DNA of 64,000 nucleotides, from the NCBI GenBank assembly GCA_029883105.1, contig JAOUJT010000001.1:3035-67034 (forward strand), written 5' to 3'. The position numbers and the translations under genes were made by a program. Numbering within the stretch: position 1 is the stretch's first letter; each line of letters starts with the position of its first letter. Of the stretch, positions 4,179 through 45,400 are shown one piece after another. The DNA comes from Gammaproteobacteria bacterium (lineage in GTDB: Bacteria; Pseudomonadota; Gammaproteobacteria; Thiohalospirales; Thiohalospiraceae). Below the pieces are notes generated by a model, which was not told where the DNA came from, made no database searches, and was given only the letters and a program-made list of their open reading frames with translations.

Positions 4179-4715
4179 ATGACGGTTGTTCTGAAGATAT
4201 CTCAAAGTGATATCGCTACATCTGTTGAGAAACAAGAATTGTCAGCAGGTTACACAGAACAAGCTGTCACAGTTGAGGCCCTAGGGAAAGACCTATCGGG
4301 AGTAGAGGAGAGATTCTCTCCCGATATAGCCATTGAGAAGGTCGAGAGAAAGAATGTAGATACGCCTTTGCAAGTCTCTCCTGCTCTAGAAGGTAGTAAT
4401 ATTCCTCAAGAGATGACAGCAGATGTAGCTACAAAGGAATCTGTTCAGACGATCCCAAAAGGGAAGCCTGTTATGGTTATCAGCACACCAACACGCGACA
4501 ATACATTTGTCGAAAAAAGCCTTGCTGAAATAAGCCTCGATAAATCTATTATTTACGAGCACAATTTAGATCTTCCTGTTGCAGGAGAAATCACTGCTAA
4601 CAGTGAGACAACAGATGTTATTATAAATGGTTCTGGTATCAGAAAACAAGGGAAGTATGATTCATACGCAGTACAGGGATATGTGAAAGACGAATACTGG
4701 AGAATTAATAGATGA
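4179..4715 (+). CDS. hypothetical protein
   Basis: 178-aa ORF tightly packed between neighbours. Its stop overlaps the next start. Confidence 0.55.
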   Translation: MTVVLKISQSDIATSVEKQELSAGYTEQAVTVEALGKDLSGVEERFSPDIAIEKVERKNVDTPLQVSPALEGSNIPQEMTADVATKESVQTIPKGKPVMVISTPTRDNTFVEKSLAEISLDKSIIYEHNLDLPVAGEITANSETTDVIINGSGIRKQGKYDSYAVQGYVKDEYWRINR

Positions 4716-7700
4716 CCGATATCCTTACAAGAGCAGCCAAAGGTGACCTCTTAGAGCATTTTGAAATTGATGCTAATTTCACTAATCTGAATAACGACAA
4801 AATAGAGACTTCTCTGCTAGGTCTCACTGAAGGTAAGATCCCTCTACTAGGCCCAGGAGGGCTCTTTCCAGAGTCTGTGTTTTCATCAGTAGGAGGTTTA
4901 TTCACTGAAGACGCAAGTAACAATATAGTTGGTGGCACAGGTTCTGGTGCATCACTAACTACCGGTACTTACAATTTCTTCGCCGGAAGTAATGCGGGAA
5001 ATCTGTTACAGAGTGGCAGAGATAATATAGCTATAGGATATAGGTCTCTATCAGTCAACCTTGTTAATAATAACAATGTAGCCATCGGAAGTGCTGCTTT
5101 ACGATTTGCTACTGGTGCAGCATTAACCGCTCTAGGCCCTTATGCAGGTAATAAAATATCTTCTGGTAGCAACAGTATTGCTATTGGTTGGGCTGCTCTA
5201 GGACAAATAGATGCAACTTCAGCTTCTATAACAGGGTCAGGAAATGTAGGTATGGGCTTATACGCTGTCGGTGGATTATCCACAAACCCTACAACTCTAC
5301 ACACTAATTTAGGTGTGGGAAATTATGCGTTATCCGATCTACAAACAGGGGGATTTAACACGGGATTAGGCACCCAAACCCTAGAAACTATTACAACTGG
5401 TCTTGGAAACACAGCTATAGGGGATAGAGCCGGTAGGAACTTAACTAGTTCAAGTTCTTATAATGTAATGATAGGGTTTCGAGCCGGGCCAGGTACCGGT
5501 GCTAATGTACATAATAAATTATATATTCATAACAATGTGTCAAGCACGCCTCTGATTTACGGTGATTTTGCAATTTCAAAGATCACAATCAATGGGGATT
5601 TTGATGTTACTGGTGCATTTACCTCTTTAGGTATAGATGATAATGCAACAGGAGAACGGTTGCAGATAGCTGATACCTTGTCTAGTTTTGGCGCTTCAGG
5701 TGTTTTCTACGGACTAATACATCCAGCGAATGATCAGGGCATTACTATAGCAGGAGGTAATGCACCCGCGAAAGGAGGTAACATAGAGCTAGGAGGTGGT
5801 ACTCATGTTTCTATTGCAGGGGATATCCGTATTCGCTCAGGCGCTAATTCTGTCTTCACTTGGGACGAATCTTTAGGCTCTCTCACACTTTCTACAGGGG
5901 CAGGAGTTAAAACTACAGCTCTTACTATCAACGCTTCTCAGCGTGCTACATTTAGTGGTGATGTGAGGTTATCAGGTGATACTCCGACCTTGTCTATAAA
6001 TGACGTGGTATCGGTATCTGATACCGCGATGCAAACATACATCTCACTACAACGGGCTGGGGCAGAGAAAGGATGGTTAGGCTTTGGTTCTGGAGCTAAC
6101 ACACACCTAAGCATTGTTAATAATCTTGGCGAGATAAGGTTATCTTCTAATGGAGTTACTGCACTAACCTTAGATGCTTCTCAGGATGCTACTTTCGCAG
6201 GAGCTGTAACTGTACAAGGAGTTTTCACTTCTCTGGGCATAGATGACAATGCCTCTAGCGAGCGTCTTCAAATAGCTGATGGGGATATAGTTCTCGGAGG
6301 TTGGCATGATGCAAACTATACAGTAAAAAGAGGAATAGATAATAGAATTTTAATTTTTGAGGGAGGCGTTACGTCTGCAGGTAGTGCAAGGTTACTACTA
6401 TATGGTGCGACAGAAACAACTGGTGCTGGTGATTTTGCTTTAAAGTCAGGCTTTAATACTGTCTGCTTATGGGATGAGTCAGCAGGAGCACTAACTCTGA
6501 GTACGGGAGCAGGAGCTAAAACTGCTGCGCTTACCCTAGACGCATCACAAAATGCTACATTTGCAGGTACTGTTGACGGCCGCGACGTAGCAGCAGACGG
6601 TGCGGTATTAGACTCTTTAGTGGTGACATCTGCACCAAATATTCCTGCTCGCAATGCTGTACTAAATAAAGAACCTGTCAGTCAAGGTGAGTCTACCCGT
6701 ACTGGTATGAGTTCTACAATCTATACAGGTACTTCTAGTGCTAATCCGGTAGCCTCTGGTATTGATATGGCTACTGGTGAATTCGGAGGACTAGTCTGGA
6801 TAAAGAGTAGAAATACCGTAAGTAATCATGCTCTATTTGATACAGTTAGAGGAACTACCCTTGAACTTAAAAGTAACAGTAGTGGAGTAGAAGTTATTAA
6901 TTCAGATGCTCTAACTGCTTTCACCTCTACAGGATTTAGTCTAGGAGCTGATGCTAATGTAAACTCTATCGGTAATACCTATATAGCATGGTCATGGCAG
7001 ACTAATAAGAAAATAACTGGTGTTACTAATAGAAATAAATCTTATACTTGCCACTATAATCCTGACATGGGGTTTTCAATTGTCAGTTATGTGGGTGATG
7101 GTGTTGCTGGTCATGAGATACCACATCATCTAGGTGTATCTCCTGAACTATCAATCTTCAAAAATATAACAAGTTCGAATAACTGGATTTTGCAGGGGAA
7201 AGATATCGGGAATTCTGAAAGCGGGGACTATATTCTTTTAAACGCTACTAATACTCTCACGAACACTACATCGGTCAAGTCTATTTTTACGGAAGAAACC
7301 GTGAGTCTTGGAATAGCGAGCTATAATACTTCGGGTGTAAGTAATATTGCTTACCATTTCTCTTCAGTAGAGGGTGTTTCTAAAGTTGGTAAGTATATTG
7401 GTACAGGCGCTATTGGCAATTACGTGGAATGTGGTTTTACACCAGCATTTGTGATGATTAAAAATATAACAACTGCTGAAGATTGGCAAGTGTTAGATGT
7501 CATACGTGGAGGTGGAAACTTATTACAAGCCAATACTACTTCAGCGGAACAATCTGTTGTGCTACTAACTATTAATGCTCAAGGTTTTATTCTACTTGGT
7601 AGTGGAGGGACTAATAAACTCAATGATGAATATATATTTTTAGCCTTCTCCTTAGCCACTTCAGATGCTACAAAATCATGGACAAATTATAGTTATCCAA

Positions 7701-8953
7701 CTACTGCTGATACACTCAGTATTGCACAAGATACGTTAATTTCATTTGCTGAAGGATTTAGCGCAGTTGGTCAAACAGATACTCAGGAGAATGTCGGTGC
7801 AGGTGTAACTCATACGCTTGGTGTCGGGCATGAAAATAAACACTACTATATCTACAAAGATAAAGCTGGCGCATTCGGTGTTACCGAGAATCGACCACTG
7901 GAAGACTCTGATAAGTGGGGTGATAGATCACCATCTGATGCTACCTTACGTACTACCTCAAGGCATTTTGATTACGAGAGTGATACAGGAGTTGTGTTAG
8001 CAAGTGGCGAAAACTCTACTAACTATGCGTATAATGCATTTAATAAAGATATAAATGACATTATTACAGTAGGTAGTTACTGGCAAATTGCGTCCTCTAC
8101 AATATCTTGGTTACAGTACAAGCAAACCGAGAAACGAATTCTCAAATCATGGAGAATAAAAGCACATGGAGACTCTACCGAATTACCTTCACGACTAATC
8201 ATCCAAGGCTCAAATGATGGTCTTAATTGGATTAATATTGATACTACGTATTCAGCTTCTAATTACGTTGGGAGTCTGCTTAATTTGTGGGGAGATCTGC
8301 AATCTACTGCAGACAATACTGTAGCCTATTTATACCATAGAATTTATATCACAGCTAATAACGGTGATCCTACATATACAGGTTTTAGTGAGTTAGAATT
8401 TAACACTATTCTCCCATCAGATCGTTTTGATGTAGCTGAAGGTGTACTTTATAACTCTGCTGGTTCTCCTATTGCTAGAACTTATCTCGCTGAGTTCCGT
8501 ACTGATGACAATGGCGGCGTAATTAATAATACAATCCGTAACTTTACTCCAGCTAAGCAAAAATTCACTGAAGCTGAGATTCAAGGGAAGTTAAAAGTTC
8601 ATGATGAAATTGAGAATAGGGGTATCTGTACGGCATGGGTGAACTTCGATGGTACTCAGAATCCTCCTTTGATACTGGATAGTTACAATGTAAGCGATGT
8701 AGTTGATTTAGGTGTTGGAGCTTACAAAATTATATTTGAAACTCCGATGGATTTACCTGCTTATACAGTCGCTGGTTACGCACAACATGCGGAGAGTGTT
8801 ACAGATTCTAGTTTCAATATACGTGGTTACGGGAATTCTATCACTAAACAGTCTGTGACTGTTCAATCAACTGTGGTAAACGAGACATCATCTGCGAGAA
8901 CTGATTTAGGCGCAGTATGTGTATCTATATTTGGAGGTAAGAAAATACTATGA
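4712..8953 (+). CDS. tail fibre / receptor-binding protein with internal repeats and a discoidin-like domain
   Basis: 1413 aa, Gly/Ser/Thr/Asn-rich. Repeated blocks FTSLGIDDNA.(G/S)ERLQIAD and WDES.G.LTLSTGAG.KT.ALT..ASQ.ATF.G. F5/8-type-C-like segment WRIKAHGD...LIIQGSNDGLNW...FSELEFN. Confidence 0.75.
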   Translation: MTDILTRAAKGDLLEHFEIDANFTNLNNDKIETSLLGLTEGKIPLLGPGGLFPESVFSSVGGLFTEDASNNIVGGTGSGASLTTGTYNFFAGSNAGNLLQSGRDNIAIGYRSLSVNLVNNNNVAIGSAALRFATGAALTALGPYAGNKISSGSNSIAIGWAALGQIDATSASITGSGNVGMGLYAVGGLSTNPTTLHTNLGVGNYALSDLQTGGFNTGLGTQTLETITTGLGNTAIGDRAGRNLTSSSSYNVMIGFRAGPGTGANVHNKLYIHNNVSSTPLIYGDFAISKITINGDFDVTGAFTSLGIDDNATGERLQIADTLSSFGASGVFYGLIHPANDQGITIAGGNAPAKGGNIELGGGTHVSIAGDIRIRSGANSVFTWDESLGSLTLSTGAGVKTTALTINASQRATFSGDVRLSGDTPTLSINDVVSVSDTAMQTYISLQRAGAEKGWLGFGSGANTHLSIVNNLGEIRLSSNGVTALTLDASQDATFAGAVTVQGVFTSLGIDDNASSERLQIADGDIVLGGWHDANYTVKRGIDNRILIFEGGVTSAGSARLLLYGATETTGAGDFALKSGFNTVCLWDESAGALTLSTGAGAKTAALTLDASQNATFAGTVDGRDVAADGAVLDSLVVTSAPNIPARNAVLNKEPVSQGESTRTGMSSTIYTGTSSANPVASGIDMATGEFGGLVWIKSRNTVSNHALFDTVRGTTLELKSNSSGVEVINSDALTAFTSTGFSLGADANVNSIGNTYIAWSWQTNKKITGVTNRNKSYTCHYNPDMGFSIVSYVGDGVAGHEIPHHLGVSPELSIFKNITSSNNWILQGKDIGNSESGDYILLNATNTLTNTTSVKSIFTEETVSLGIASYNTSGVSNIAYHFSSVEGVSKVGKYIGTGAIGNYVECGFTPAFVMIKNITTAEDWQVLDVIRGGGNLLQANTTSAEQSVVLLTINAQGFILLGSGGTNKLNDEYIFLAFSLATSDATKSWTNYSYPTTADTLSIAQDTLISFAEGFSAVGQTDTQENVGAGVTHTLGVGHENKHYYIYKDKAGAFGVTENRPLEDSDKWGDRSPSDATLRTTSRHFDYESDTGVVLASGENSTNYAYNAFNKDINDIITVGSYWQIASSTISWLQYKQTEKRILKSWRIKAHGDSTELPSRLIIQGSNDGLNWINIDTTYSASNYVGSLLNLWGDLQSTADNTVAYLYHRIYITANNGDPTYTGFSELEFNTILPSDRFDVAEGVLYNSAGSPIARTYLAEFRTDDNGGVINNTIRNFTPAKQKFTEAEIQGKLKVHDEIENRGICTAWVNFDGTQNPPLILDSYNVSDVVDLGVGAYKIIFETPMDLPAYTVAGYAQHAESVTDSSFNIRGYGNSITKQSVTVQSTVVNETSSARTDLGAVCVSIFGGKKIL

Positions 8954-9336
8954 TAGCTTATAATCAAGGAAATGGGCAAATTGCTATTTGCTCTCAAGTA
9001 TCCAGTGTGCCTGAGGGTGCTCAATATATTGAAACTCATGTAGCTCCCATGGATAAACTATTTCGATCAGCATGGAGACTAGGTGTTGATTCAATTGAGA
9101 CTGATCTGTCCGGAGCTAAAATAATTGCTCATAATATGCGTCGAGCAAAACGAGAGATTGACTTTGCGCCTTATGACGAAATTATTGCTAAGCAGATTCC
9201 AGGACATGATGCAATAGCTGCTGAAGCTGCTAGAGCTGATATACGAACAGCAGATGCGTTACTGCAAAGTAACATAGATGCTTGTTTGGACGAGAACACC
9301 CTACGGGGTGTAATAGAACCACTAATAACTGTATAG
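8950..9336 (+). CDS. hypothetical protein (possible fibre-associated)
   Basis: 128-aa ORF with start overlapping the fibre gene stop. No diagnostic motif. Confidence 0.5.
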   Translation: MIAYNQGNGQIAICSQVSSVPEGAQYIETHVAPMDKLFRSAWRLGVDSIETDLSGAKIIAHNMRRAKREIDFAPYDEIIAKQIPGHDAIAAEAARADIRTADALLQSNIDACLDENTLRGVIEPLITV

Positions 9337-9345
9337 GAAAATAAA

Positions 9346-9600
9346 ATGGCTTTAACAGAAACAAGAATACCAGATCGAGTAATAACTCTTGAAGATGGGC
9401 AAATCGAAATACGTTACGCTAATCGAATCTTTCGGAACGGTAACTACGTCACCACAGACTACGACGTCGAGCGTATCGATGTTGGCGAAGATGTGTCAGG
9501 GAAAGAAGCATTGGTTCGTGATGTAGTGAACGGAAACGTTTTCACCGCCGAGCGTATAGCAGCTAGACAGGCAGTCAAAGATGCTGAAGATCGGCAGTAG
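9346..9600 (+). CDS. hypothetical protein
   Basis: 84-aa ORF with ATG 9 nt after the previous stop. Confidence 0.5.
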   Translation: MALTETRIPDRVITLEDGQIEIRYANRIFRNGNYVTTDYDVERIDVGEDVSGKEALVRDVVNGNVFTAERIAARQAVKDAEDRQ

Positions 9601-9964
9601 TGTACTACTATGCTCTCTGATGGGGACAGTCCTAGCGGATGACCTAGGGATAGGCTTCATAGATCGGACGGTCCATCTTCAAAGTTCAGACTCTGTCTTG
9701 AATGAAAACCATCATGGTCTCTACCTACGCTACAAGAGACTACGAATAGGAGAATACCGAAATAGCTATAATATGCAAAGTAACCTGTTAAATTATGAAC
9801 TCAGTGAGCATTCAAATTATAGTACATTTGCAGGCATTGCTGATGGGTATCCTCAGAATAGACATCTCGGAGAGTACCGAATGATGTTCGGAGTAAGGGT
9901 TCGCCTAGGATTCTTGCGACTATTGATAACACCTGCTTTTATTGCGAGCAGTTACGAATTTTAG
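9581..9964 (+). CDS. small secreted protein with C-terminal aromatic signature
   Basis: Signal-peptide-like N-terminus MLKIGSSVLLCSLMGTVLA|DD. Alternating hydrophobic pattern; last residue is Phe (…SSYEF). Confidence 0.5.
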   Translation: MLKIGSSVLLCSLMGTVLADDLGIGFIDRTVHLQSSDSVLNENHHGLYLRYKRLRIGEYRNSYNMQSNLLNYELSEHSNYSTFAGIADGYPQNRHLGEYRMMFGVRVRLGFLRLLITPAFIASSYEF

Positions 9965-9972
9965 GAGAACCT

Positions 9973-10350
9973 ATGGTTATTGTATGTGACGATGACATTT
10001 CATGGTTAACCTTCTTCAGCACTTGTGCAGAGAATACATTTGAAGATCTTATAATGACACAGTCAGGGAACTCACTCCTTGAGGTGTTAGAAGCACGGGA
10101 AGAGCAACCTTGTCTTGTTTTTCTAGATTTGAATATGATTCGAAAGACAGGAATTGAAACGGCTATTGAAATTAAGAAAATAAATCCCACTATTCCTATA
10201 ATAGTGATGAGTGCAGACATAACAAGAGATAGACTCAATGACGTCTACAAAACAGGTCTACAGATGTTCCTTCGAAAGGAGTATAATGTAGAGTATTTCT
10301 CACGGAGGTTGGCTAGTATCAAGGAGACCTACCTCCACCACTGTCAATAA
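9973..10350 (+). CDS. stand-alone CheY-like response-regulator receiver domain protein
   Basis: AGGAGA RBS. Motifs: VIVCDDD (acidic pocket), LVFLDLNM (phospho-acceptor Asp at nt 10126-10128), IIVMSA (S/T), MFLRKE (Lys). 125 aa with no output domain. Confidence 0.8.
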   Translation: MVIVCDDDISWLTFFSTCAENTFEDLIMTQSGNSLLEVLEAREEQPCLVFLDLNMIRKTGIETAIEIKKINPTIPIIVMSADITRDRLNDVYKTGLQMFLRKEYNVEYFSRRLASIKETYLHHCQ

Positions 10351-11364: not shown

Positions 11365-12975
11365 ATGACTGTAGCAAACGCCGCTGATGTCACCAGAACA
11401 GTAGCAGATCCTAACGCTGAATACCTATCAATGCGTGATATATGGGATCGAAACAGGGCTGTATGCGGCGGCGAGCGCTACGTAAAGGCCTTAGATCAAC
11501 GCTTAAGTCCTAGCATGCAAAACATGCTTATTCCTTTTTCCCCATCTATGACGCAGCCTCAATATGACTTCTATCGTTTAGAGGCTGAGTTACCTGGGAT
11601 TGTGTCTCAATTTTCAAAGATGTTGGTAGGAGGTCTTCTGCGCAAGACCCCTGTACTAACTCTACCTGACGACATGCCTGAAGGTGTCCGTGAGGAGGCT
11701 CACGACTGGATCATGAATAGCTTCACCCAGGACAATTCATCAATCACATCCTTTCTAGACACCGCCTTGTGGGAAGAGATTCAAACAGGACGTGCCTGGG
11801 TATATGTAGATTATCCTTTTGTTGAAGATGCAGATTCACTTACAAATGCAGACTTCAGAGAACTTGCTCCATTTCCTATCCTATGGAAGCCTGAAGAGAT
11901 TGTGAACTGGAAACTTGGAAAGGATGAGAAAGGAAATGCAGTCCTAAAACAGATCATTGTACGGACACTAGTCGAACAGTATGGTGATACTGAAGACACT
12001 GAATTTCATCCTACATTTAAAGATACAGTTTATGTTCATGAACTCGACAGCGTCGGATATTATCAGATTCGCGTATTCGAAAGAGCTGATGATGTACAAG
12101 ACGCACCGGTCGTTAATGGAAATCCCTACAAGAAACAATCCGATAGTAAGGTGGCTTTTCCTCTTGTAGACACGATCACTGGGATCAAAGCAAATGGCGA
12201 ACGTTTGACACGAATCCCTGCATGGCCTCTTAATGGTAGCATGAAGATTACTGATCCAATCATTTCCGCTATCGTAGACAAAGAAATCAGTCTATATAAT
12301 AAAATCAGTCGCCGTAATCACTTACTATATGGTGCTGCTACATACACTCCTGTGATATTCTCCGACATGGGTGAAAAAGAGTTCGACGAAATTGTAGCGA
12401 GTGGACTGGGAAGTTGGCTGCGGTTACCTATGGAGGCTAAAGTAGAGGTTCTAAAGACTCCTACAGATGCTCTGAAAGATATGGAGAAAGCGATTGCAAG
12501 TGCTATTGAAGAGATGGCACGCTTAGGGATTCGTATGTTAAGTCCTGAGACTGCTCAATCAGGGATTGCTCTTGAGATTCGGAATGCTGCCCAGACTGCT
12601 CAGCTAGGCTCCTTAAATAACAAGGTGTCTGCGATCATGTCTAAGATTATTGCTTTTATGCTGAATTGGCGGTATGATTTAGAATTGACAGATTCTGATG
12701 TTGAATTTGACCTTTCATCTGACTTTAATCCCATCCCACTAGGTGCTGACTGGATTAGACTAGCAACAGAATGGTATGAGAACGGTCTACTTCCACGTAG
12801 CGTTTGGCTTCAGATTCTGAAACAGAATGACATTGTCTCTCCTGACTATGATGATGAAGACGGTCAGACAGAGATTATTGAAGACGACCTGATACAAGGT
12901 CAGGCGAAGGCCGAAAATGAAGATATCCAAGATCAACTTGACAAAGAACTGGAAGATGAAGATTTAGATGCCTAA
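11365..12975 (+). CDS. portal protein
   Basis: 536 aa. N-terminal pattern IWDRNRAVCGGERYVKA...QYDFYRLEAELPGIV...LVGGLLRKTP resembles the DUF4055-type portal signature. Acidic C-terminus; followed by the MuF-domain gene. Confidence 0.75.
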   Translation: MTVANAADVTRTVADPNAEYLSMRDIWDRNRAVCGGERYVKALDQRLSPSMQNMLIPFSPSMTQPQYDFYRLEAELPGIVSQFSKMLVGGLLRKTPVLTLPDDMPEGVREEAHDWIMNSFTQDNSSITSFLDTALWEEIQTGRAWVYVDYPFVEDADSLTNADFRELAPFPILWKPEEIVNWKLGKDEKGNAVLKQIIVRTLVEQYGDTEDTEFHPTFKDTVYVHELDSVGYYQIRVFERADDVQDAPVVNGNPYKKQSDSKVAFPLVDTITGIKANGERLTRIPAWPLNGSMKITDPIISAIVDKEISLYNKISRRNHLLYGAATYTPVIFSDMGEKEFDEIVASGLGSWLRLPMEAKVEVLKTPTDALKDMEKAIASAIEEMARLGIRMLSPETAQSGIALEIRNAAQTAQLGSLNNKVSAIMSKIIAFMLNWRYDLELTDSDVEFDLSSDFNPIPLGADWIRLATEWYENGLLPRSVWLQILKQNDIVSPDYDDEDGQTEIIEDDLIQGQAKAENEDIQDQLDKELEDEDLDA

Positions 12976-15900
12976 TGTAAATACAGCGATCTATGATGGT
13001 AAAGTAGATCGCGCTGCTATGCTACGCCTGTACGAACAGAATACCCATGGAAAGATAGAAGCTGTCTTTGATGGTCATGTAGTTCGTCTAGATAAGCTAG
13101 TGAAGAAGTCTAAAATTAATTCAAAGACTTTCAAAGACTTTCAAAAGAATCTTGATATCGAATTGAAGAAGACCTACAAGGAAGCCTTTAGTGTTTCTAA
13201 AAGGTCACTGCTTGACATGGCAGCAGATCAAATGTCGTTTACATACCAGAATTTAGATGCTGCATTAAGTAAGGTGTGGCGCACAAAGAGACCCCAAAGA
13301 CGTATCTCTGAAGATATTGTCTTAAAACAACCACTCTACGAGAATAGAACTCTTGAGATGGGTTGGAAAGGGGTCTCTAAAAACGAACGAAAAAGACTTG
13401 CGCAAGTGATTCGTAAAGGTATTGCAGACGGTGATACCGAAGAGATCATCGCCAGGAATATCAGAAGAGGCAATGTTCATAAAATAACCCGTAATCAATC
13501 GCGATCGTTAGTGACCACTGCAATGACGAGTGTTAATGCTCAGGTCGATCATAGTGTCTATGTCGAGAATGAAAAAGCACTTCAGGGTTGGCAGTATGTA
13601 GCTGTTCTTGACTCAAGTACTACACAGATATGTGCCTCCCGTGATGGTAAGATATATGGCGTCGATGACACAGCGTACCTCCCTCCTGCTCATTGGCAGT
13701 GTCGTTCGACAATAATCCCTGTGGTTAAGAAGTGGGAAGATCTTGCAAGTCTAGAGAGCGTTGCTCAGCTGCGTAGAAGAAATATGGCAAAACTAAGCCC
13801 TGCTCAGATAGCTAGATACGATGGCCAGACGCCTCTGAAAGAAACATATAATGCCTGGCTCCTGAGACAGCCTTCAAAGATCCAATATACGCATCTAGGT
13901 GATTGGCAGAAAGTAGACCTTTTTAACAAAGGGAAGATACATCTTTCTAAATTTACTTCTCCGGACGGTAAAACATTAGGGATTCGTCAATTGCGTCGGA
14001 TGACAGATTCTGAGTATGCACCTCCAACAGGTTCTCAACGTTTTGCATTAGCAAAGGAAAAACTAGATGCGATGAATCTTGGTGCTATCTCTCCTGATGA
14101 TTTTATAAACGACCGTAAGATGACAAACACCCTAAAGAATTTCTACATTCTTCAATCAAAAGAATTGGACGGTACTTTATCACTTACTAACTATAGAGGA
14201 AATCTCATAGGAACAAAGAGAGCACAGAAACGAAGAGTGCTTACAAGACCTCCCAGAGAAGAACAGGTGATTTTCAATCCGGTCACAGGTCGTTATGAAG
14301 ATTCAAGAATGTTTCAGCCAACACCTTCTGTTCTCGTGAACAATATGAGGCTTGTGAATGAGAGTAGTATTCTTAAGGTCGCAGATAAAGAATACATCGA
14401 TCGTTTTATTGGAAGTCTCTCTGAGTATATGAGTGTAAATGAAAGAGCTGTCGTGGCTGATAATCTGAGAATTCTCTTCACAAGATATCGAAAGAACCCC
14501 GAGAATTGGGTTAACTTTAAAGCCATTTCACAAGCACAGATTAAGTTTGACGTAATGAATGTCTCTGACACAATCGAGACACAGCTCAGAAGCGATGCGA
14601 ATCTACTGAAGAAGCTTAAGCAGGATAATTACATTGACCCTGTCCTAGGTCCTGTTACCTTTGAAGATCTTGACAAACACTTCATAAGTAATATATTAGA
14701 ACGTAATAAATGGGAAGATCGTATTGCTCCTAAAATCTCAGAGGAACTCCGTGACGTTTTCGATCACAACATACCATTTAAAATACGAAGACGTTTGAGT
14801 GATTCAAATTTACAGCAGTTCTATCTAAAATTTGCACATAGACTTTCTCTGGCAGACAGTCCTGATGTAGACCAGCTAGCGGCTGCTTTAGGTCGTGATC
14901 TGTACAATCTTGCGAACTATAATGGCAATCGTCGACAATGGTATGACCTAGGTAAGAAACTTTTAGAGTCGAATAATAAATTCTTCGAACTAGAAACCTT
15001 TGGAGTTCAGAAAAGACGTATGAAAAGTAGAATGAGTGGTCAGCTATTTGGACCTTATTACGACACGTTCTCTTACAACATTCGCATCACAGACCCTCGT
15101 ATCCAGAGGTATTCTCAGCTAAATAGAAAGATTGAGGTAGGTCTCAGGATCGGTGTCACAGATGTCGGTAATCGACTGGTCTTTCGAGAAGGTTATAAAA
15201 CGTACTTCATCAAAAACCGTCTTGGCCTCTACACAGACACTCGGATACCAATTACGTCAACAAGCAGTTTTATGGACTTTCCAGAAGGTCTTATAGACAA
15301 AGAAATGGCCGCATCTTTGAACTGGGCAGCTAAGACTGAGTATCGAATCGATGAGGACTTCTACGACTCGATCATGCATATAATGAACTTCACAGACGAT
15401 AAAGGTAAGGCAAAATACTTCGATGATATAAACGAGTACCGTAAATATATAGCAGCTAGAGGTGATGCGTATGAAAGATTTAAAGCGATGGAGTGGTTTC
15501 GTAAGAGAGGAGTTGCTTTTAGTAATCATCCTTTTGTTGACCACCGTGTGCGTATCTATGACCGTGGCTTTATCGGTCCTCAGTCTGGTGAAACTTTTAG
15601 ACCTTTCCTGAATACTGCCAAGGAGAAAGTCTTAGGCATCGATAACTTTAGAAATCTGCAAGATCAAATTGGAGCTTTCTTAGGAGGTCTCGATGACTAT
15701 TTTGAAGGTCGTTATAACTCTCTAAGTGTGACAGGGCGACAGAAGATTGCAATAAAATGGCGTAAAGAGCTGGTTACTATTGGAAATCATATGATACGAA
15801 ATAAGCCAAATGATGTCCGTAAGATTCTTCAGTCAGACATGGTGGCTAGAATCGAAGGTGAAGAATTAGGTAAGTTTCTCAGATTCGCAATTGAAGTTGC

Positions 15901-17587
15901 TAAGATAGATAATTATCTAGACGGTGTCTATAACAAAACCTCTCTTCAAAAGCTTTCTAAATACAAGACAGCTCTCGCTCTTGAACAAGACGCATCGTCT
16001 TCAGGTGCCCAGATCATTGCGCTAACCACACGAAATAAGCAATTAGCAGAGCTTAGTAATGTTGTCCCTACAAACCAGAAACGACGACTCTACGACGAAA
16101 TAGCAGCTGCCACGTTCAACGATCCAGCGTTTAGAAAACTAAATGAGAAGTTTGGACTTACTGAGAAAGATTTACGCAAGGCTGCGAAGGCTCAGAACAT
16201 GGTAACCTTTTATGGAGCAGGAGAGAAGACAGGGATTCTGAACGTTGAAGGTAAATTGGCAAAAGTTCTTGAGAGACAACCTGGTACTCTCGTTGTGAAG
16301 GCCTCTGATCGCGACGTTGTCCTCAGTGAGATATCAGCACGCATTGCTCGTTATGAACGCTTTGATCCTGCTATTGCTGAAGAATTGAAAGTCCTTAGAA
16401 GCAATGTACGTGACATATTCAACAAAGGTCTTCATGTAGGGGATGACATCATGGAAGACTTATATTTCTTGGACCCCGCGACCAAAGATCTGGTGTTACA
16501 AATGACGCAAAACTACACAAAGGTCGTAACCCCTGATGATTTTCGGCAGATTGCTAAGATTATGAGTATGCATCTTGGCGAACAGGTTCCTATCTTGAAA
16601 GACTTTACAAAATATTTAGGGCGACTGGGTGAAGACTTTCTCATCAACGCTAAACCTTCTAAGAGTAGTTTTTCCTGGAAAGGTATTTTAAAGGAGCGGT
16701 TATTTGGTTCATCCCGTGATGGTTATAAGCTGTCGAAAGAAACCAGTAAGCTTCTGGGACTCCCTGCAAACACAGCTATCTCAAAGCAGATTCTGAGTAA
16801 GTTTGGCTTCTGGCGTCCTAATGGAACTCTCAGCCAGCTACTCTATGGAGTAAAGGATCCAGGAGATCGCAGAATAGGAGCTAAGTATTTCAAGATTCAA
16901 ATAACAAAATTTAAGAAAATCTTTTCAATCGAAGTTTTCAAAGCCAACAGATTGCCTAAAAGGTGGACAAACATCCCCTGGAAGAACTTCGATGGGAAGA
17001 CAATTGAGCAGAACTTTACGCAGACCTTCGAAGAGCGTCTGTTGTATAGAGATAAGGACGGTAACTGGGTTACGAATATTCTTCAAGTACCTCAAAAGAC
17101 GCAGGCGACTTGGTGGGAACAAATTCTCAATGATGCAGGAAATATTGACGATATTGCTGATGCTACAAAGGCTAGAACTGCCTATGCTGTAAATGGGAAT
17201 CACTCCAATGATGCTGTGATTGTCAAGCGATTCCATTTGTGGGGTAAGTCTGAAGATGTTCCTACTTCTACAATTCATGACGCTTTCTTTACTAATATCG
17301 CGGATATGTTAAAAGCACGGTCGGCTCTGCGTAAAATATATGCTGATGCTATGAAAACAAATGTTATAAAAGCAACTCTAGATGAGATGTTAGCGAGAGG
17401 TCTCCCTCGTGCACTTTATGACAAGTATTTGAATGAAGCCATTGAAATAGGCCTTATCCCTGTACCAGGAAGGTCTCGAGTAGGCGGCAAGCTACTAAAA
17501 GATACCGACATATTAAACTCTGAAGACATCTTAAAGAAGGTTAATGAAGTCTTTCAGGAAGATGCTTATTGGTACGGCGTGGGGTAA
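12968..17587 (+). CDS. minor head protein (MuF / SPP1 gp7 domain) fused to a T7-type single-subunit RNA polymerase domain; putative virion RNAP
   Basis: MuF signature GWQYVAVLDSSTTQICASRDGKIY...PPAHWQCRSTIIPV. RNAP motifs in canonical order: DHRVRIY..GPQSGETFRPFL, LEQDASSSGAQ (motif A), RKAAKAQNMVTFYGAG (motif B), TIHDAFFT (motif C). Confidence 0.85.
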   Translation: MPNVNTAIYDGKVDRAAMLRLYEQNTHGKIEAVFDGHVVRLDKLVKKSKINSKTFKDFQKNLDIELKKTYKEAFSVSKRSLLDMAADQMSFTYQNLDAALSKVWRTKRPQRRISEDIVLKQPLYENRTLEMGWKGVSKNERKRLAQVIRKGIADGDTEEIIARNIRRGNVHKITRNQSRSLVTTAMTSVNAQVDHSVYVENEKALQGWQYVAVLDSSTTQICASRDGKIYGVDDTAYLPPAHWQCRSTIIPVVKKWEDLASLESVAQLRRRNMAKLSPAQIARYDGQTPLKETYNAWLLRQPSKIQYTHLGDWQKVDLFNKGKIHLSKFTSPDGKTLGIRQLRRMTDSEYAPPTGSQRFALAKEKLDAMNLGAISPDDFINDRKMTNTLKNFYILQSKELDGTLSLTNYRGNLIGTKRAQKRRVLTRPPREEQVIFNPVTGRYEDSRMFQPTPSVLVNNMRLVNESSILKVADKEYIDRFIGSLSEYMSVNERAVVADNLRILFTRYRKNPENWVNFKAISQAQIKFDVMNVSDTIETQLRSDANLLKKLKQDNYIDPVLGPVTFEDLDKHFISNILERNKWEDRIAPKISEELRDVFDHNIPFKIRRRLSDSNLQQFYLKFAHRLSLADSPDVDQLAAALGRDLYNLANYNGNRRQWYDLGKKLLESNNKFFELETFGVQKRRMKSRMSGQLFGPYYDTFSYNIRITDPRIQRYSQLNRKIEVGLRIGVTDVGNRLVFREGYKTYFIKNRLGLYTDTRIPITSTSSFMDFPEGLIDKEMAASLNWAAKTEYRIDEDFYDSIMHIMNFTDDKGKAKYFDDINEYRKYIAARGDAYERFKAMEWFRKRGVAFSNHPFVDHRVRIYDRGFIGPQSGETFRPFLNTAKEKVLGIDNFRNLQDQIGAFLGGLDDYFEGRYNSLSVTGRQKIAIKWRKELVTIGNHMIRNKPNDVRKILQSDMVARIEGEELGKFLRFAIEVAKIDNYLDGVYNKTSLQKLSKYKTALALEQDASSSGAQIIALTTRNKQLAELSNVVPTNQKRRLYDEIAAATFNDPAFRKLNEKFGLTEKDLRKAAKAQNMVTFYGAGEKTGILNVEGKLAKVLERQPGTLVVKASDRDVVLSEISARIARYERFDPAIAEELKVLRSNVRDIFNKGLHVGDDIMEDLYFLDPATKDLVLQMTQNYTKVVTPDDFRQIAKIMSMHLGEQVPILKDFTKYLGRLGEDFLINAKPSKSSFSWKGILKERLFGSSRDGYKLSKETSKLLGLPANTAISKQILSKFGFWRPNGTLSQLLYGVKDPGDRRIGAKYFKIQITKFKKIFSIEVFKANRLPKRWTNIPWKNFDGKTIEQNFTQTFEERLLYRDKDGNWVTNILQVPQKTQATWWEQILNDAGNIDDIADATKARTAYAVNGNHSNDAVIVKRFHLWGKSEDVPTSTIHDAFFTNIADMLKARSALRKIYADAMKTNVIKATLDEMLARGLPRALYDKYLNEAIEIGLIPVPGRSRVGGKLLKDTDILNSEDILKKVNEVFQEDAYWYGVG

Positions 17588-17593
17588 TAGAAC

Positions 17594-17608
17594 CCCGTTA
17601 AATTAACC
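17594..17608 (+). promoter_or_regulatory. class-1 conserved motif CCCGTTAAATTAACC
   Basis: Exact copy of the 1034-1048 15-mer. Lies in the gap between the MuF-RNAP stop and the scaffold gene. Confidence 0.5.
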
Positions 17609-17691
17609 CTGTTATTTAGTGTAACAAGAGTCTTAACAATTAAACGTGTTGCTGTGCGACACATAAATGAGCTGTGCTCAGGAAAAGAAAG

Positions 17692-18378
17692 ATGCCAGAT
17701 GAAGATGACGATACCAAAATCAAGGATCCCAAGAAAATTGTGGTCGGTGATACTGATGAAGCGACAAAGCTTCTCATCGCCCAACAGATTCAAGATGGGA
17801 TTGCTGAGTCTTTAAAACCTATCAAGGAAAATCTTGATAAGGCGTATAAGGCTAAAGAAGAAGCTGAGGCCCGTGCTCTAGAGCTGGAAAATAAGCAGAA
17901 AGAACGCGAGCTTAAAGATTTGGAAGAAGCAGGAAAGCACAAAGAAGTTTACGAACAACGTCTTGCTGATAAGGAAAAAGAACTGGAAGACACCGCCCAG
18001 ACTATGAAGTCTTTGGCTCAAAAGAACATCGAACTGACGAGAGATATTGAAGTTCGAAATGCTCTGCGAGAGTTTGACTTTAGAAACGCCAATGCTAGTG
18101 ATATGGCATTTCGAGAAGTCATAGGAAGTCTTACACAGAACTCCTCTGGAACATGGGTAGACGGTCAAGGTAGATCTGTCCTGGAAGTTGTTAAAGGTTT
18201 CGTTGATAACGAGACAAATGCTTTTCTTCTTAAACCGAAATCATCATCAGGCTCCGGCACACAACACGGGGACGAAACTCCACCTGCCATTACGAAGACA
18301 GATTCTCTCTTCGGGATGAAGCAGGCGGATGTACTAAAACTAGCCTCTGAGGGTAAACTACCCAGAACGAGGCGCTAA
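17692..18378 (+). CDS. scaffolding protein
   Basis: ATG at 17692 after AGGAAAAGAAAG. Charged, Glu/Lys-rich coiled coil; sits directly upstream of the major capsid gene. Confidence 0.65.
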   Translation: MPDEDDDTKIKDPKKIVVGDTDEATKLLIAQQIQDGIAESLKPIKENLDKAYKAKEEAEARALELENKQKERELKDLEEAGKHKEVYEQRLADKEKELEDTAQTMKSLAQKNIELTRDIEVRNALREFDFRNANASDMAFREVIGSLTQNSSGTWVDGQGRSVLEVVKGFVDNETNAFLLKPKSSSGSGTQHGDETPPAITKTDSLFGMKQADVLKLASEGKLPRTRR

Positions 18379-18393: not shown

Positions 18394-19611
18394 ATGCGTA
18401 CTGACATACGAGTTAATGATACTGGTGGTTACACACCTTACGTTCTACAAGAAACTATCGGAGCCTACTCTGACGAGGCATACACCAATGCCCGTAAGTT
18501 ATCAGGAACCGATATCGTCCAGGGCGATCCTGATATCGATACTGATGGTGAGACCTATATTGGTCAAATGCGATGGTTCACCCCATTAAATCCTGTTGTT
18601 AATGTTGCATCTCTGACTGATGCGACCAATGGTACTCCTACCACTTACGGTTCACAGTTCTTGCAATATGTGAAATCGGCTCGTACACACGGTGCTGAGA
18701 AAGTTAACCTTTCAAAGATTGTCACTCAAGACGACGGTCTGGCAAAAGTAGGTCGTGATCTGGGTGAAACTCGTGCACAAGATGAGCATGATGCAATCCT
18801 GGCTATTCTGAAAGGCGTAGCCATCTCTGAGCTTATGTACGGTGCTGCTCAGGCTACCGGCGCTTCAGGTCTTGGTGGTCAGTCATTCTCAAATGACCCT
18901 TCCGATAATGCTTATGGCTTCTATGTCGATTTAGGTGCAAGCAAGGTTGTTACTGATGCAGCTGCTGCTAATATTGGTGCACAACGAGCTGCTGGCTTTC
19001 TGAATGCCTTTGGTCAAGCATATAAGGACCATGAGCCTGAGTACGCATACCTCGTTGCCAGTCCTGCTGTTATGGCTTCACTGCGCTCTGCTAATCTGGT
19101 AGATTCTGATCGTGTCACTGACGGTAATGTTGAGTTCAACACTATCTTCCAGGGCAAGTTCCGATTGATCCAGACTCGTGCTACCCAGTCATTGACTGCA
19201 GCTGAACGAGCAATGTTTGCAGCCACTTCTGTAGCGTCTGAAGGTGTCGATATTGTCGGCACGTTAACTTCGTATATCGTACTGCCTGGTGCTCTTGCAA
19301 TGGAGCCTTTGACTATCGATGAAGACGTTGAGATCGAACGAGCAGCTGCTGCCTACCAAGGTGGTGGTACTACTCAAATATGGTATCGTTGGGGTTACAT
19401 CCTACATCCTGCTGGTTACAACTGGGCAGGTTCTCAGGATGCATTTCCTACCAATGCAAATTACCAGCAAATCACTGACGGAACTACTCCTGTAGCTGTT
19501 GACTCTATCGGTGCTGCTACCGTGAATGGCCTTGACGGCTTCACTGGTGTATGGCAGCGTAAGACAAGCTCAGCTCTGTCTCTGGGTATCCTCCCAGTCT
19601 TCCACTCTTAA
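18394..19611 (+). CDS. major capsid protein
   Basis: 405 aa, positioned after the scaffold gene. Ala/Gly/Thr-rich composition typical of capsid proteins. Family not identified by eye. Confidence 0.75.
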   Translation: MRTDIRVNDTGGYTPYVLQETIGAYSDEAYTNARKLSGTDIVQGDPDIDTDGETYIGQMRWFTPLNPVVNVASLTDATNGTPTTYGSQFLQYVKSARTHGAEKVNLSKIVTQDDGLAKVGRDLGETRAQDEHDAILAILKGVAISELMYGAAQATGASGLGGQSFSNDPSDNAYGFYVDLGASKVVTDAAAANIGAQRAAGFLNAFGQAYKDHEPEYAYLVASPAVMASLRSANLVDSDRVTDGNVEFNTIFQGKFRLIQTRATQSLTAAERAMFAATSVASEGVDIVGTLTSYIVLPGALAMEPLTIDEDVEIERAAAAYQGGGTTQIWYRWGYILHPAGYNWAGSQDAFPTNANYQQITDGTTPVAVDSIGAATVNGLDGFTGVWQRKTSSALSLGILPVFHS

Positions 19612-37782: not shown

Positions 37783-37785
37783 CAA

Positions 37786-37828
37786 TTGCGCCATATGTGG
37801 TATCTTATATGAATAGGAATAATCCTAT
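37786..37828 (+). promoter_or_regulatory. class-3 conserved element, copy 1 (TTGCGC-N7-GGTATCTTATATGAATAGGAATAATCCTAT)
   Basis: 30-nt core is identical to the copies at 39915-39944 and 40331-40360. Contains the perfect inverted repeat ATAGGA-ATAA-TCCTAT (37813-37828). Ends about 22 nt before the next start codon. Confidence 0.55.
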
Positions 37829-37850
37829 TATAATAATCAGGAGATACTCG

Positions 37851-38135
37851 ATGAAATATTTAATTATAATAATAGCTCTACTAACAACCCCCGCGTTTGC
37901 CTGTAATTCTCATGATACTAATGGGTATATATGGATTGGGGCTGGACTTCATGACAGTCCACACGATGTAGCATTTGGAAAAGAGATAGCAGAGTGGGGT
38001 GTGAGCTTCAATTTACACCAGATCAGTCCTATCAACAGCCTCCGTTTCATCCTTAAGCACGATTCAGGGATATGGACGAGGGAGAGAGACTATGGCTACA
38101 ACACTGCAACCTTCAGGCTACAAGCTAACTTCTAA
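37851..38135 (+). CDS. small secreted protein or lipoprotein (94 aa)
   Basis: CAGGAG RBS. Signal sequence MKYLIIIIALLTTPAFA|C. Ends in ...TATFRLQANF (C-terminal Phe). HDSG segment present. Confidence 0.55.
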   Translation: MKYLIIIIALLTTPAFACNSHDTNGYIWIGAGLHDSPHDVAFGKEIAEWGVSFNLHQISPINSLRFILKHDSGIWTRERDYGYNTATFRLQANF

Positions 38136-38683: not shown

Positions 38684-38810
38684 CACCACGATCTCAGGGT
38701 CACCCTTATGGGAGTGTGCCTGAAAAAACGACAGCAGAGACGGCCAGTCTGGAAGCCGTCCTCAAAAAATCCTTTAGAATCAAGGGGTTAGGGCGGTCGT
38801 CACCTCAGAC

Positions 38811-39899: not shown

Positions 39900-39944
39900 A
39901 ACTGCGCAAAAATGGGTATCTTATATGAATAGGAATAATCCTAT
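39900..39944 (+). promoter_or_regulatory. class-3 conserved element, copy 2
   Basis: AACTGCGCAAAAATGGGTATCTTATATGAATAGGAATAATCCTAT. 65/71 nt identical to copy 3 when counted through the start codon. Confidence 0.55.
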
Positions 39945-39965
39945 CACAACAACTGAGGTAATATT

Positions 39966-40277
39966 ATGAACAAGCAATTTGCAGAAATGATCGAAAAAAG
40001 TCTTTCAGGTTTTAGTAAGTACGGTTTGGAGGCGTTGGCAAAACGTAAGCTGACGGCTTCGGATATCCTTGCGAGAGCTACAAAACGGGTTGTCTCACGG
40101 GAAGATGAAGAGTATTACGTTCTTGTACGTAGTCCTACGAACGACCAGATAAAAGCCCGTATTACTGACCGCACACGGGTAGGTGATTTGGAAGGTATAA
40201 TCGATGGTCTGCTGGACCGACTTAATGACAGTATGGAAACTGACATCCACGGCAAGAAGCCAAAAGCTAAAGCCTAG
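39966..40277 (+). CDS. hypothetical protein (103 aa)
   Basis: GAGGTAA RBS supplied by the conserved cassette. Followed by the hairpin TACGGGG-N8-CCCCGTA (40292-40313). Confidence 0.6.
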   Translation: MNKQFAEMIEKSLSGFSKYGLEALAKRKLTASDILARATKRVVSREDEEYYVLVRSPTNDQIKARITDRTRVGDLEGIIDGLLDRLNDSMETDIHGKKPKAKA

Positions 40278-40315: not shown

Positions 40316-40360
40316 AACTGCGCAAAAACAGGTATCTTATATGAATAGGAATAATCCTAT
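40316..40360 (+). promoter_or_regulatory. class-3 conserved element, copy 3
   Basis: AACTGCGCAAAAACAGGTATCTTATATGAATAGGAATAATCCTAT, with the same spacing to the start codon as copy 2. Confidence 0.55.
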
Positions 40361-40381
40361 CACAACAAACGAGGTAACACT

Positions 40382-40672
40382 ATGAAAAATCAAGAAGTAT
40401 TAAAGAAAATCCCAGAAGCCATCCTTTGGTATTTAAAGACAATGCTCGTAAATATGCTGATGCTTTTATGCGGAATCTTTCTTGTGTATGAAATTCAGCT
40501 TTTGATCCTCTATCCGATCTTAATTGCACAAGCTTTTATGTATGCTGCTTTCTTCGCAGCTATAATGACTGCTGGTCAATATATAGCTGCTAGTGTATAT
40601 GAGTGGGTCAGCCGCTGTAAATATGATCGTGAGCATGGTATCATCAACGGCAAATGCCAGGCGGCTGTCTAA
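40382..40672 (+). CDS. membrane protein (96 aa, multi-TM)
   Basis: Hydrophobic segments LVNMLMLLCGIFLVY, LILYPILIAQAFMYAAFFAAIMTAG. Confidence 0.55.
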   Translation: MKNQEVLKKIPEAILWYLKTMLVNMLMLLCGIFLVYEIQLLILYPILIAQAFMYAAFFAAIMTAGQYIAASVYEWVSRCKYDREHGIINGKCQAAV

Positions 40673-45363: not shown

Positions 45364-45400
45364 TAAATTTAATTAAATCAATTAAAGCAGGAAAATACGA

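Follow-up and report, generated by a model that had tools for sequence, protein, structure and literature searches.

A putative virion RNA polymerase: fusion of a MuF-type head protein to a T7-type RNA polymerase in a long-tailed phage

Four designs of virion RNA polymerase are known, the N4-like, the crAss-like, the phiKZ/AR9-like and that of P23-45, and each has brought with it unusual enzymology and an escape from dependence on, or interference by, the host polymerase. In N4 and P23-45 the injected polymerase transcribes the first phage genes, which in P23-45 include the gene for a second phage polymerase (PMC5512222, PMC10770324). The N4-like polymerases, which have a zincin-like peptidase domain as fusion partner, were reported from N4-like phages only (PMC5512222), and in the Thermus siphovirus P23-45 the virion RNA polymerase gp96 is fused to the tape measure protein and gp64 is the non-virion polymerase (PMC10770324), which makes P23-45 the existing precedent for a siphovirus virion RNA polymerase fused to a structural protein. 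Among minor head proteins of the MuF family, SPP1 gp7 is a portal-binding protein of which each capsid has 1-2 copies (cited in PMC5576092), and MuF proteins carry C-terminal effector domains whose delivery into cells has been proposed (PMC5576092, PMC5512222). Here we analyze a gene in which a MuF head protein is joined to a T7-type RNA polymerase. It lies in a stretch of 64,000 nucleotides (nt) from the gammaproteobacterial assembly GCA_029883105.1 (contig JAOUJT010000001.1, positions 3,035 to 67,034 of the forward strand), the whole of which is referred to as the window.

The gene is a single open reading frame (ORF) of 1539 amino acids (aa) beside the portal gene. From its sequence we take it, with somewhat more confidence than doubt, to encode a two-part virion protein with a MuF/SPP1-gp7-type minor head part of ~400 aa, a flexible linker and an RNA polymerase of the T7/mitochondrial type of ~1100 aa; on this reading, which also draws on analogy, the phage probably has a transcription enzyme of its own inside the capsid. 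The features of this locus are as follows.

11365..12975, + strand: portal gene (PHROG 145, E 4.3e-59; Pfam DUF4055, E 1.7e-9)
12968..17587, + strand: MuF-RNA polymerase fusion gene, putative virion RNA polymerase; single unbroken ORF, 1539 aa, ATG start
13397..13717, + strand: MuF core, Phage_Mu_F PF04233, aa 144-250 (Pfam 50.3 bits against a cut-off of 29.6, E 4.9e-13)
13955..14050, + strand: low-confidence, probably flexible linker from the MuF region to the polymerase module, aa 330-361
14165..17584, + strand: T7-like single-subunit RNA polymerase module including the counterpart of the T7 N-terminal domain, aa ~400-1539 (AlphaFold2 and Foldseek)

An earlier note on this DNA had described an uninterrupted ORF of 1539 aa whose start overlaps the portal stop by 8 nt, and the coordinates in the ORF list bear this out. 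The G+C content is even (0.39-0.44 throughout the ORF), so there is no hint of a chimeric assembly. The head morphogenesis family phrog_241 covers aa 2-408 of the protein (E 1.9e-55). The MuF/gp7 signature that the note had placed at residues ~150-255 was recovered both by the Phage_Mu_F profile, above its curated cut-off, and by script, which located the strings QSRSLVTT... (aa 177-192), GWQYVAVLD... (aa 207-230) and PPAHWQCRSTIIPV (aa 239-252, nt 13682-13723). Residues C222, P239, P240, H242, C245, R246 and S247 are invariant in an alignment of 49 sequences comprising the window protein, 25 close relatives (60-74% identity) and 23 proteins of the Naomviridae clade (28-32% identity). With a profile match above threshold and a place in the head module beside the portal, the protein is classed by its sequence as a member of the MuF family. 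The protein was modeled with AlphaFold as two overlapping parts, aa 1-470 and aa 400-1539, and the first of these (predicted local distance difference test, pLDDT, 80) consists of long helices and a small beta element; the linker at aa 330-361 is its sole stretch with pLDDT below 50.

The C-terminal part of the protein scores 34.5 bits with Pfam RNA_pol (PF00940), for which the cut-off is 22 (E 1.4e-8), and matches the PHROG of T7-type RNA polymerases (phrog_414) over aa 856-1089 (E 3.3e-21), with the N4-like phrog_2166 reaching only E 1.2e-3. A phmmer search of the PDB sequences with the whole fusion protein returned nothing useful, and T7 RNA polymerase was reached only by the family profile (E 4.8e-8), which pairs DsRgRvY with DWRGRVY, DASsSGaQ with DGSCSGIQ and NGnHsnDA...iHDaf with NFVHSQDG...IHDSF in collinear order; alignment of the family to T7 RNA polymerase by hhalign gave 96.5% probability over T7 residues 397-877. 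The structure is in agreement. The AlphaFold2 model of aa 400-1539, made from an alignment of 110 sequences in two clades sharing 28-34% identity, has a mean pLDDT of 86.4 and a predicted template modeling (TM) score of 0.83, and its top 50 Foldseek matches in the PDB are all T7 RNA polymerase (initiation or elongation complexes) or the yeast or human mitochondrial RNA polymerase (E 6e-18 to 4e-15). These matches have TM scores of 0.43-0.56 normalized to the target, and because ~1000-1250 columns align, the N-terminal domain of the T7 enzyme is covered as well. Among the viral models of BFVD the best match is the homologue in a DSS3 phage (E 5e-64), followed by RNA polymerases of T7-like phages (1e-20 to 1e-13); the N4-like virion polymerases rank lower (1e-11 to 1e-7), and none of them is in the PDB top 50. 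By sequence and genome context the fusion protein is placed in the T7-like polymerase family. The structural and profile comparison that the note had called for thus gives a match to T7 and mitochondrial RNA polymerases that is nearer to the T7-like than to the N4-like enzymes.

The note had also listed T7-type signatures in canonical order, with coordinates for motifs A, B and C and a spacing between B and C well above that of T7. The order is upheld by the family profile, hhalign and the structure model, and every coordinate was verified by script, with the following assignments.

15539..15559, + strand: DHRVRIY, aa 858-864, equivalent to T7 DWRGRVY (aa 421-427)
15980..16012, + strand: motif A, LEQDASSSGAQ, aa 1005-1015; D1008 (codon 15989-15991) equivalent to the catalytic D537 of T7
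16175..16222, + strand: motif B, RKAAKAQNMVTFYGAG, aa 1070-1085; register R-x3-K-x3-M-x3-Y-G equivalent to T7 R627-K631-M635-Y639-G640
16616..16969, + strand: insertion in the fingers, after motif B and before motif C, specific to this clade and missing from the Naomviridae clade, aa ~1217-1334, with lower model confidence
17192..17212, + strand: NGNHSND, equivalent to T7 N781-H784-D787, aligned to T7 NFVHSQDG
17270..17293, + strand: motif C, TIHDAFFT, aa 1435-1442; H1437/D1438 (D codon 17279-17281) equivalent to T7 H811/D812
17570..17584, + strand: conserved extreme C-terminus WYGVG; Y1536 and G1537 invariant

Motifs B and C stand 356 aa apart (Y1082 to D1438), compared with 173 aa in T7 (Y639 to D812), and ~120 aa of this excess is the clade insertion, query residues 1216-1335 being skipped by the BLASTP segments of the Naomviridae clade.

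Conservation of the residues expected to carry out catalysis was followed in both alignments. Invariant in the 49 and in the 110 sequences alike are D858, R860, R862 and Y864 (T7 D421, R423, R425 and Y427), the motif B residues K1071, K1074, M1078, Y1082 and G1083, the residues N1409, H1412 and D1415, the motif C pair H1437 and D1438, and Y1536 and G1537 at the C-terminus. Four of the motif B residues (K1074, M1078, Y1082 and G1083) are the equivalents of T7 K631, M635, Y639 and G640, and K1071 stands at the position of T7 S628. Within motif A, E1006, D1008, A1009, S1010, S1012, G1013 and Q1015 are invariant in the 49-sequence alignment. The two aspartates of motifs A and C, whose conservation in homologues the note had singled out as a check, are unchanged in both sets.

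A second line of evidence for an active enzyme comes from EBPR siphovirus 1 (L001, JF412302), in which the homologous gene is split by ~850 nt (9176-10040) between ...AQNMV and TFYGAG..., a point that corresponds to window aa 1079/1080 (nt ~16204) and so falls within motif B. In GenBank the pieces of this split gene figure as three unrelated genes. The insert encodes an HNH/NUMOD1 endonuclease (gp48), and its 5' part gives a full-length match to the Rfam group I intron (40.5 bits, E 1.2e-8) that stays under the gathering score of 50; at gathering thresholds Rfam finds no RNA family in the window or the EBPR locus. Eight truncated proteins of the Naomviridae clade (~1140 aa) stop at the same position. 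Homing sites typically fall in conserved, essential sequence, which here would place motif B under selection, and an intron that homes to the most conserved catalytic motif is what is expected of an essential, active enzyme. On this sequence evidence we regard it as nearly certain that the fusion is real and its polymerase active.

How widely the fusion is distributed was examined in phage records and in metagenomic collections, as the note had suggested. Among phage records searched by tblastn, full-length relatives are found solely in EBPR siphovirus 1 (58% identity to the window fusion) and in the cultured roseophages DSS3_VP1 and DSS3_PM1 of the Naomviridae (29% identity at 90% coverage). 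Their annotations read 'head protein', 'minor head protein-like', 'head morphogenesis' or 'minor capsid', and a polymerase is never named; the Phage_Mu_F threshold is passed also by DSS3_VP1, EBPR siphovirus 1 and six distant homologues. In a protein collection of 5.8 billion clusters (E <= 1e-5) the window protein finds 336 metagenomic clusters, with both Pfam domains in nearly all of the best 120 of the 336 and many of them on contigs of 55-90 kb. Starting from the DSS3_VP1 protein, the search gives 146 clusters; among the best 120 of these a majority carry both domains, and about a quarter have a recorded MuF match alone. The polymerase module, searched with HMMER against 1.84 billion representatives at 50% identity, retrieves 164 proteins. 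Full-length carriers of the module are 1264-2073 aa long, with the module always C-terminal, and even among distant ones (23-30% identity) all six that were examined have an N-terminal MuF domain. The surroundings are retained as well, the order portal - fusion - scaffold - capsid being shared by the window, DSS3_VP1 and EBPR siphovirus 1 and the order terminase - portal - fusion being seen on the 41-kb contig (L094) of one distant homologue. Within reach of these searches the polymerase lineage is found full-length solely in fusion with MuF. We conclude that the fusion is genuine, ancient and widespread, and the search for further examples has yielded hundreds of metagenomic clusters in addition to the cultured Naomviridae.

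These results bear on the most skeptical explanation, by which the module has lost catalysis and serves as a structural or DNA-binding domain, or the fusion itself is an artefact of assembly or frameshift. The Pfam RNA_pol match is modest, at 34.5 bits over part of the model only; yet the catalytic and substrate-selecting residues are all invariant across clades in a complete T7-like fold, and the same fusion is met again in hundreds of independent assemblies as well as in two phages that have been cultured and sequenced in full, with an even composition along the ORF. We consider this explanation very improbable, since residue invariance, fold and recurrence together effectively refute it.

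Two further observations concern the homologues. In some, additional domains of 70-230 aa are accommodated at a small number of permissive sites, those at aa ~265, 985 and 1107 ranging over 115-230 aa: aa ~985-988 in P0010, P0022, P0042, P0059 and P0105, aa ~991 in P0163, aa ~1107 in P0062 and aa ~265 in P0162 and P0194. One inserted domain, HEFxEDAETIxWAKKN..., is found at two different sites in different homologues. The inserts have no match in Pfam; inteins were rejected as the cause of the extra length, the inserts lacking intein ends, and a ParB-like resemblance ('DGLHR') in one of them is unsupported. They are possibly additional delivered effectors. The second observation concerns Pelagibacter phage Kolga (L096, MT375529), whose head morphogenesis protein (45152-47053, 633 aa) is akin to the N-terminal 350 aa of the fusion and lacks the polymerase, and which encodes at 33563-35851 a homologue (28% identity) of the free polymerase described below. 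Kolga is a natural comparison for gain or loss of the fusion.

The relation to the described systems can now be stated. Like N4 gp50, the window polymerase is a single-subunit enzyme of the T7 superfamily encoded among late virion genes, for which carriage in the capsid and injection are here proposed, and the three-polymerase transcription program of N4 (Schitoviridae) likewise combines a few early promoters with a second T7-like phage polymerase for the next gene class. N4 gp50, however, is a protein of ~3500 aa with a C-terminal encapsidation region in a short-tailed phage, whereas the protein described here has 1539 aa, an N-terminal MuF domain and, as its putative route, a very long tail; the giant zincin architecture is absent, and the sole other Pfam domain of the fusion is the N-terminal MuF. 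The note's statement that the architecture differs from the N4 and crAss-type virion RNA polymerases holds, given a module nearer to the T7-like than to the N4-like enzymes and an N-terminal MuF anchor. P23-45 is also an extremely long-tailed siphovirus, with a virion polymerase borne on a structural protein and a separate promoter class for each polymerase, and by analogy it is functionally the closer parallel of the two. Its enzymes, in contrast, are two-barrel, cellular-type paralogues with a tail protein as carrier, while the pair in the window consists of remotely related T7-type enzymes of the right-hand fold, one of them with a head protein as carrier.

With the MuF polymorphic toxins and polyvalent proteins the fusion shares an N-terminal MuF domain encoded beside the portal, a C-terminal enzymatic cargo and a proposed delivery. 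The MuF cargos described are toxins, ADP-ribosyltransferases, nucleases, peptidases and similar proteins, whereas this cargo, of ~1100 aa, is an enzyme of the phage life cycle and belongs to lytic phages. Polyvalent proteins join several effector domains to a packaging-associated domain such as MuF; the window protein has two modules, and some of its homologues have inserted domains that are variable in position, as in polyvalent proteins. The word 'polymerase' is absent from the survey of MuF toxins (PMC5576092), and the survey of polyvalent proteins gives virion polymerases in N4-like phages only (PMC5512222). T7 RNA polymerase and the enzymes of the Autographiviridae have the same fold, the same motif order and a similarly conserved C-terminus. 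They are free enzymes made early, in contrast to a capsid-protein fusion encoded in the late head operon with long insertions, and phmmer with the polymerase module of the fusion reaches almost no ordinary T7-like polymerase. Virion RNA polymerases and MuF cargo fusions are thus already known, and it is the combination of MuF with a T7-type RNA polymerase that is new among the literature found. We found no description of such a fusion, or of the two Pfam accessions together, in the open-access literature, an absence that is no proof of novelty, and RNA polymerase goes unmentioned in a 2025 study of marine viruses that resemble the Naomviridae.

What the fused polymerase would transcribe is suggested by the rest of the genome. 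All sizeable genes of the window are on the + strand, and three classes of repeated intergenic elements occur between them, the promoter-like D1 and D4 and a third class, D2. Those most relevant to the argument are listed here together with the second polymerase gene and the head and tail genes.

1997-3346, + strand: terminase large subunit
17592..17612, + strand: D4, ACCCCGTTAAATTAACCCTGT, 5 nt past the fusion stop and 5' of the scaffold and major capsid genes; other D4 copies at 1032-1052 and 38809-38829
17674-18378, + strand: scaffolding protein gene (phrog_206 / phrog_247 matches for the scaffold and capsid pair)
18394-19611, + strand: major capsid protein gene (of the same matched pair)
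22824-30545, + strand: tape measure gene, 2573 aa (many tape-measure PHROGs, best E 1.9e-62)
37784..37861, + strand: D1 copy 1 (..TGCGCC..GGTATCTTATATGAATAGG..), at the start of the early region, right behind the tail genes
37.8-41.5 kb, + strand: small genes
39900..39977, + strand: D1 copy 2, 5' of a 103-aa ORF
40316..40393, + strand: D1 copy 3, 5' of small ORFs leading into the free polymerase gene
41548-43803, + strand: free T7-like RNA polymerase, putative non-virion polymerase (Pfam RNA_pol, E 1.4e-67)

The second polymerase gene and the long tail had both been claimed in the note, and both stand: the free enzyme matches Pfam RNA_pol far above chance, and the tape measure of 2573 aa implies a very long non-contractile tail. 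By the rule of thumb of 0.15 nm per tape-measure residue the tail would here be ~0.4 µm long. Homologues of the free polymerase occur in DSS3_VP1 and DSS3_PM1 (34% identity), as in Kolga, and DSS3_VP1 has the gene order of the window. The free polymerase and the fusion are kept together in DSS3_VP1, in DSS3_PM1 and on at least one IMG/VR contig (L041 and L081 are the same contig). Between the fused and the free enzyme of the window the resemblance is remote, with alignment limited to the surroundings of motifs A and C, and on that ground we rejected the idea that one arose from the other by recent duplication. In about ten related contigs (L034, L037-L041, L045, L049, L050 and L052) the match to the free polymerase spans 2.9-3.3 kb compared with 2.25 kb in the window, which suggests introns, homing endonucleases or extra domains in that gene.

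The D1 copies sit just before the ribosome-binding sites of the early genes that lead to the free polymerase. The logo, taaa.tGCGgaAAaa..gGTATCTTATATGAaaa, is conserved over ~28 contiguous nt, and its core is kept in relatives whose free polymerase is just 41-66% identical. The coding strand holds all 77 of the 77 D1 sites (68 distinct). Each locus around the free polymerase gene has 0-3 copies (none in six loci), and 64 of 64 sites there lie 0.7-7 kb upstream of that gene. In DSS3_VP1 a related element, GCATCTATAATGA, occurs three times, and two of these copies immediately follow the tape-measure terminator, where the early region begins. No D1-type pattern was found in Kolga, with its MuF protein free of polymerase and its free polymerase, a single distant and AT-rich genome that is weak evidence. 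D4 precedes late gene blocks, and its core too is kept in relatives, where 80 of 82 sites are on the coding strand. With D4 5 nt past its stop, the fusion gene would be transcribed together with the terminase and portal genes and lie upstream of the point at which the abundant head proteins receive their boost, a position that fits a low-copy virion component.

In the window the D1 copies continue past the core with a perfect hairpin (ATAGGA-ATAA-TCCTAT) that stands right ahead of the ribosome-binding site. This hairpin is not conserved in relatives and may be a 5' untranslated region or regulatory element specific to the window phage; unlike the promoters of N4, D1 is not obviously a hairpin promoter.

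Taking these data together, we propose the following sequence of events. The fusion protein would be expressed late, from one operon with terminase and portal, and a few copies would enter each procapsid through contact between MuF and the portal. At infection it would exit with the DNA along the long tail and, in the new cell, would start phage transcription from the ~28-nt D1 promoters with no need of the host polymerase. The D1-driven early genes would include the second, free T7-like polymerase, which would then transcribe middle and late genes from D4 and perhaps D2. From gene position, from what is known of MuF proteins and by analogy we infer the incorporation into virions, the ejection into the host cell and the assignment of each polymerase to its promoters. 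Packaging of the fusion protein in virions appears quite likely to us; for injection together with responsibility for early transcription the balance is at or slightly above even.

Several points weigh against this proposal. The delivery of MuF cargos is itself still largely a hypothesis (PMC5576092), and the paper describing the Naomviridae reports no virion proteome and never mentions an RNA polymerase. A folded protein of ~175 kDa is too big for the tube of a siphovirus tail, so that unfolding and refolding would be required, a passage that is accepted for other ejection proteins and is a presumption for MuF proteins. The N-terminal MuF model has no significant Foldseek match in the PDB (best E 0.23, to helical bundles), and the MuF-portal contact lies beyond structural comparison because that model has no solved relative. 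In the polymerase, R1070, at the position of T7 R627, varies in the Naomviridae clade as the one exception to the conservation described above. Finally, the D1-type element of DSS3_VP1 holds a perfect TATAAT, and the reader of D1 may be the host polymerase, using an unusual promoter type, in place of the fused enzyme.

The last point leads to an explanation in which the fused polymerase acts in the producing cell, either tethered to the portal in late or packaging-coupled transcription or separated by cleavage so that MuF alone is packaged, and the host polymerase reads D1 as it reads A1-A3 of T7. T7-like siphoviruses that use the host polymerase for their early genes do exist, the DSS3_VP1 element has its TATAAT, and D1 copy 1 of the window can be fitted to a sigma-70 promoter. 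The fit of copy 1, however, is reached only when its non-conserved upstream flank is counted, copies 2 and 3 do not fit, and the ~28 conserved nt of D1 run without a break through what would be the sigma-70 'spacer'; in the early region as a whole sigma-70-like sites show no excess (12 compared with 10.1 +/- 2.8 in shuffled sequence). D1 was accordingly rejected as a sigma-70 promoter. Maturation cleavage would have no obvious agent, because there is no prohead protease gene between the portal and capsid genes, and work inside the producing cell is already served by the free polymerase. An intact fusion across lineages at 23-30% identity, with the full-length enzyme found only in fused form, is likewise hard to explain if tethering to the capsid were irrelevant. 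We therefore judge action in the producing cell unlikely, though it is the foremost of the competing explanations.

A further explanation accepts that the polymerase is packaged and ejected, and the evidence for packaging is common to it and to the proposal of early transcription, but gives it a main role as a DNA pilot or entry motor that works by transcription, or in the priming of replication. Genome entry in T7 is driven by transcription, and T7-type and mitochondrial RNA polymerases are able to prime replication. A genome of ~64 kb or more that carries all its genes on a single strand and has to pass through a very long tail (tape measure of 2573 aa) would suit transcription-coupled entry. 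Such a motor is compatible with the proposed early role, since a transcribing motor also yields early RNA; the position of D1 directly before early-gene ribosome-binding sites points instead to productive transcription, and no origin-like feature was linked to the elements. As the main role of the enzyme, entry or priming is in our view decidedly improbable.

Returning to the proposal of injection and early transcription, its wider form would be that a large group of long-tailed phages with a worldwide distribution, from the Naomviridae of marine roseobacters with deoxyuridine (dU)-containing DNA to many wastewater and freshwater relatives, runs a transcription program independent of the host polymerase, in which a MuF-borne T7-type RNA polymerase reads a ~28-nt ..TGCGgaAA..GTATCTTATATGA.. 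promoter and turns on the free polymerase. We hold this wider form in even balance. If true, it would be an independent invention of the N4 strategy with another carrier, another polymerase lineage and a tail of ~0.4 µm, a fifth virion RNA polymerase design and the first case of a capsid-internal T7-type polymerase traveling down a long siphovirus tail. The fusion would also be among the clearest MuF cargos with an obvious function in the recipient cell, and so a test of the idea that MuF C-termini are delivered, and it would explain the first transcription of the uracil-containing DNA of the Naomviridae.

Whatever the outcome, hundreds of database entries include an RNA polymerase under no other label than 'head morphogenesis protein' or 'minor capsid protein', and a polymerase paired with a compact, highly conserved candidate promoter could serve as an orthogonal transcription tool. 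The roseophages DSS3_VP1 and DSS3_PM1 grow on Ruegeria pomeroyi DSS-3 (PMC8323127). As the fusion lies in an ICTV family with cultured members, its proposed role, including the bearing it has on first expression of dU-containing Naomviridae DNA, is directly testable.

The remaining annotated features of the window are these.

4712-8953, + strand: tail fibre-like protein
32119-37782, + strand: large tail protein, 1887 aa (no PHROG match; weak Pfam Phage-tail_3)
45327-45362, 48452-48487 and 53333-53368: D2 (..ATCGCT.GCA.CGAT.CCGGAAAAGTAACCG), in the replication-gene region
45401-45901: nucleotide-kinase-like ORF, directly 5' of the DNA polymerase gene
46046-48103, + strand: DNA polymerase
53819-54454: HD-domain 5'-deoxynucleotidase-like (YfbR-like) ORF (Pfam E 6e-20)
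54342-55316, + strand: exonuclease
55317-55781: gene for a SegE-like GIY-YIG homing endonuclease, free-standing (Pfam E 2e-11), with the exonuclease gene on one side and the primase/helicase gene on the other
55968-57707, + strand: primase/helicase, predicted GTG start at 55968
57713-59686, + strand: ribonucleotide reductase
61774-63096, + strand: ligase

D2 is possibly a middle promoter or a regulatory site, and it was not found in related contigs at up to 4 mismatches. The window contains no tRNAs. DSS3_VP1, with its dU-containing DNA, has a deoxycytidine monophosphate (dCMP) deaminase and a kinase at the syntenic place; in the window no dCMP deaminase is recognizable there, only the nucleotide kinase-like and HD 5'-deoxynucleotidase-like ORFs, and a dU genome for the window phage is unsupported for lack of a recognizable deaminase.

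Two short repeats complete the description. At 931-976 and 980-1025 a 46-nt hairpin followed by a T-run occurs as a tandem duplicate (85% identity) immediately 5' of the D4 copy at 1032, and this pair looks like a double terminator that closes the preceding unit before the late genes. At 55948-56007 an exact 30-nt tandem duplication (two copies of TGAGCCACCTAAAAAGGGAGGTGTTGAGGG) extends across the predicted GTG start of the primase/helicase gene.

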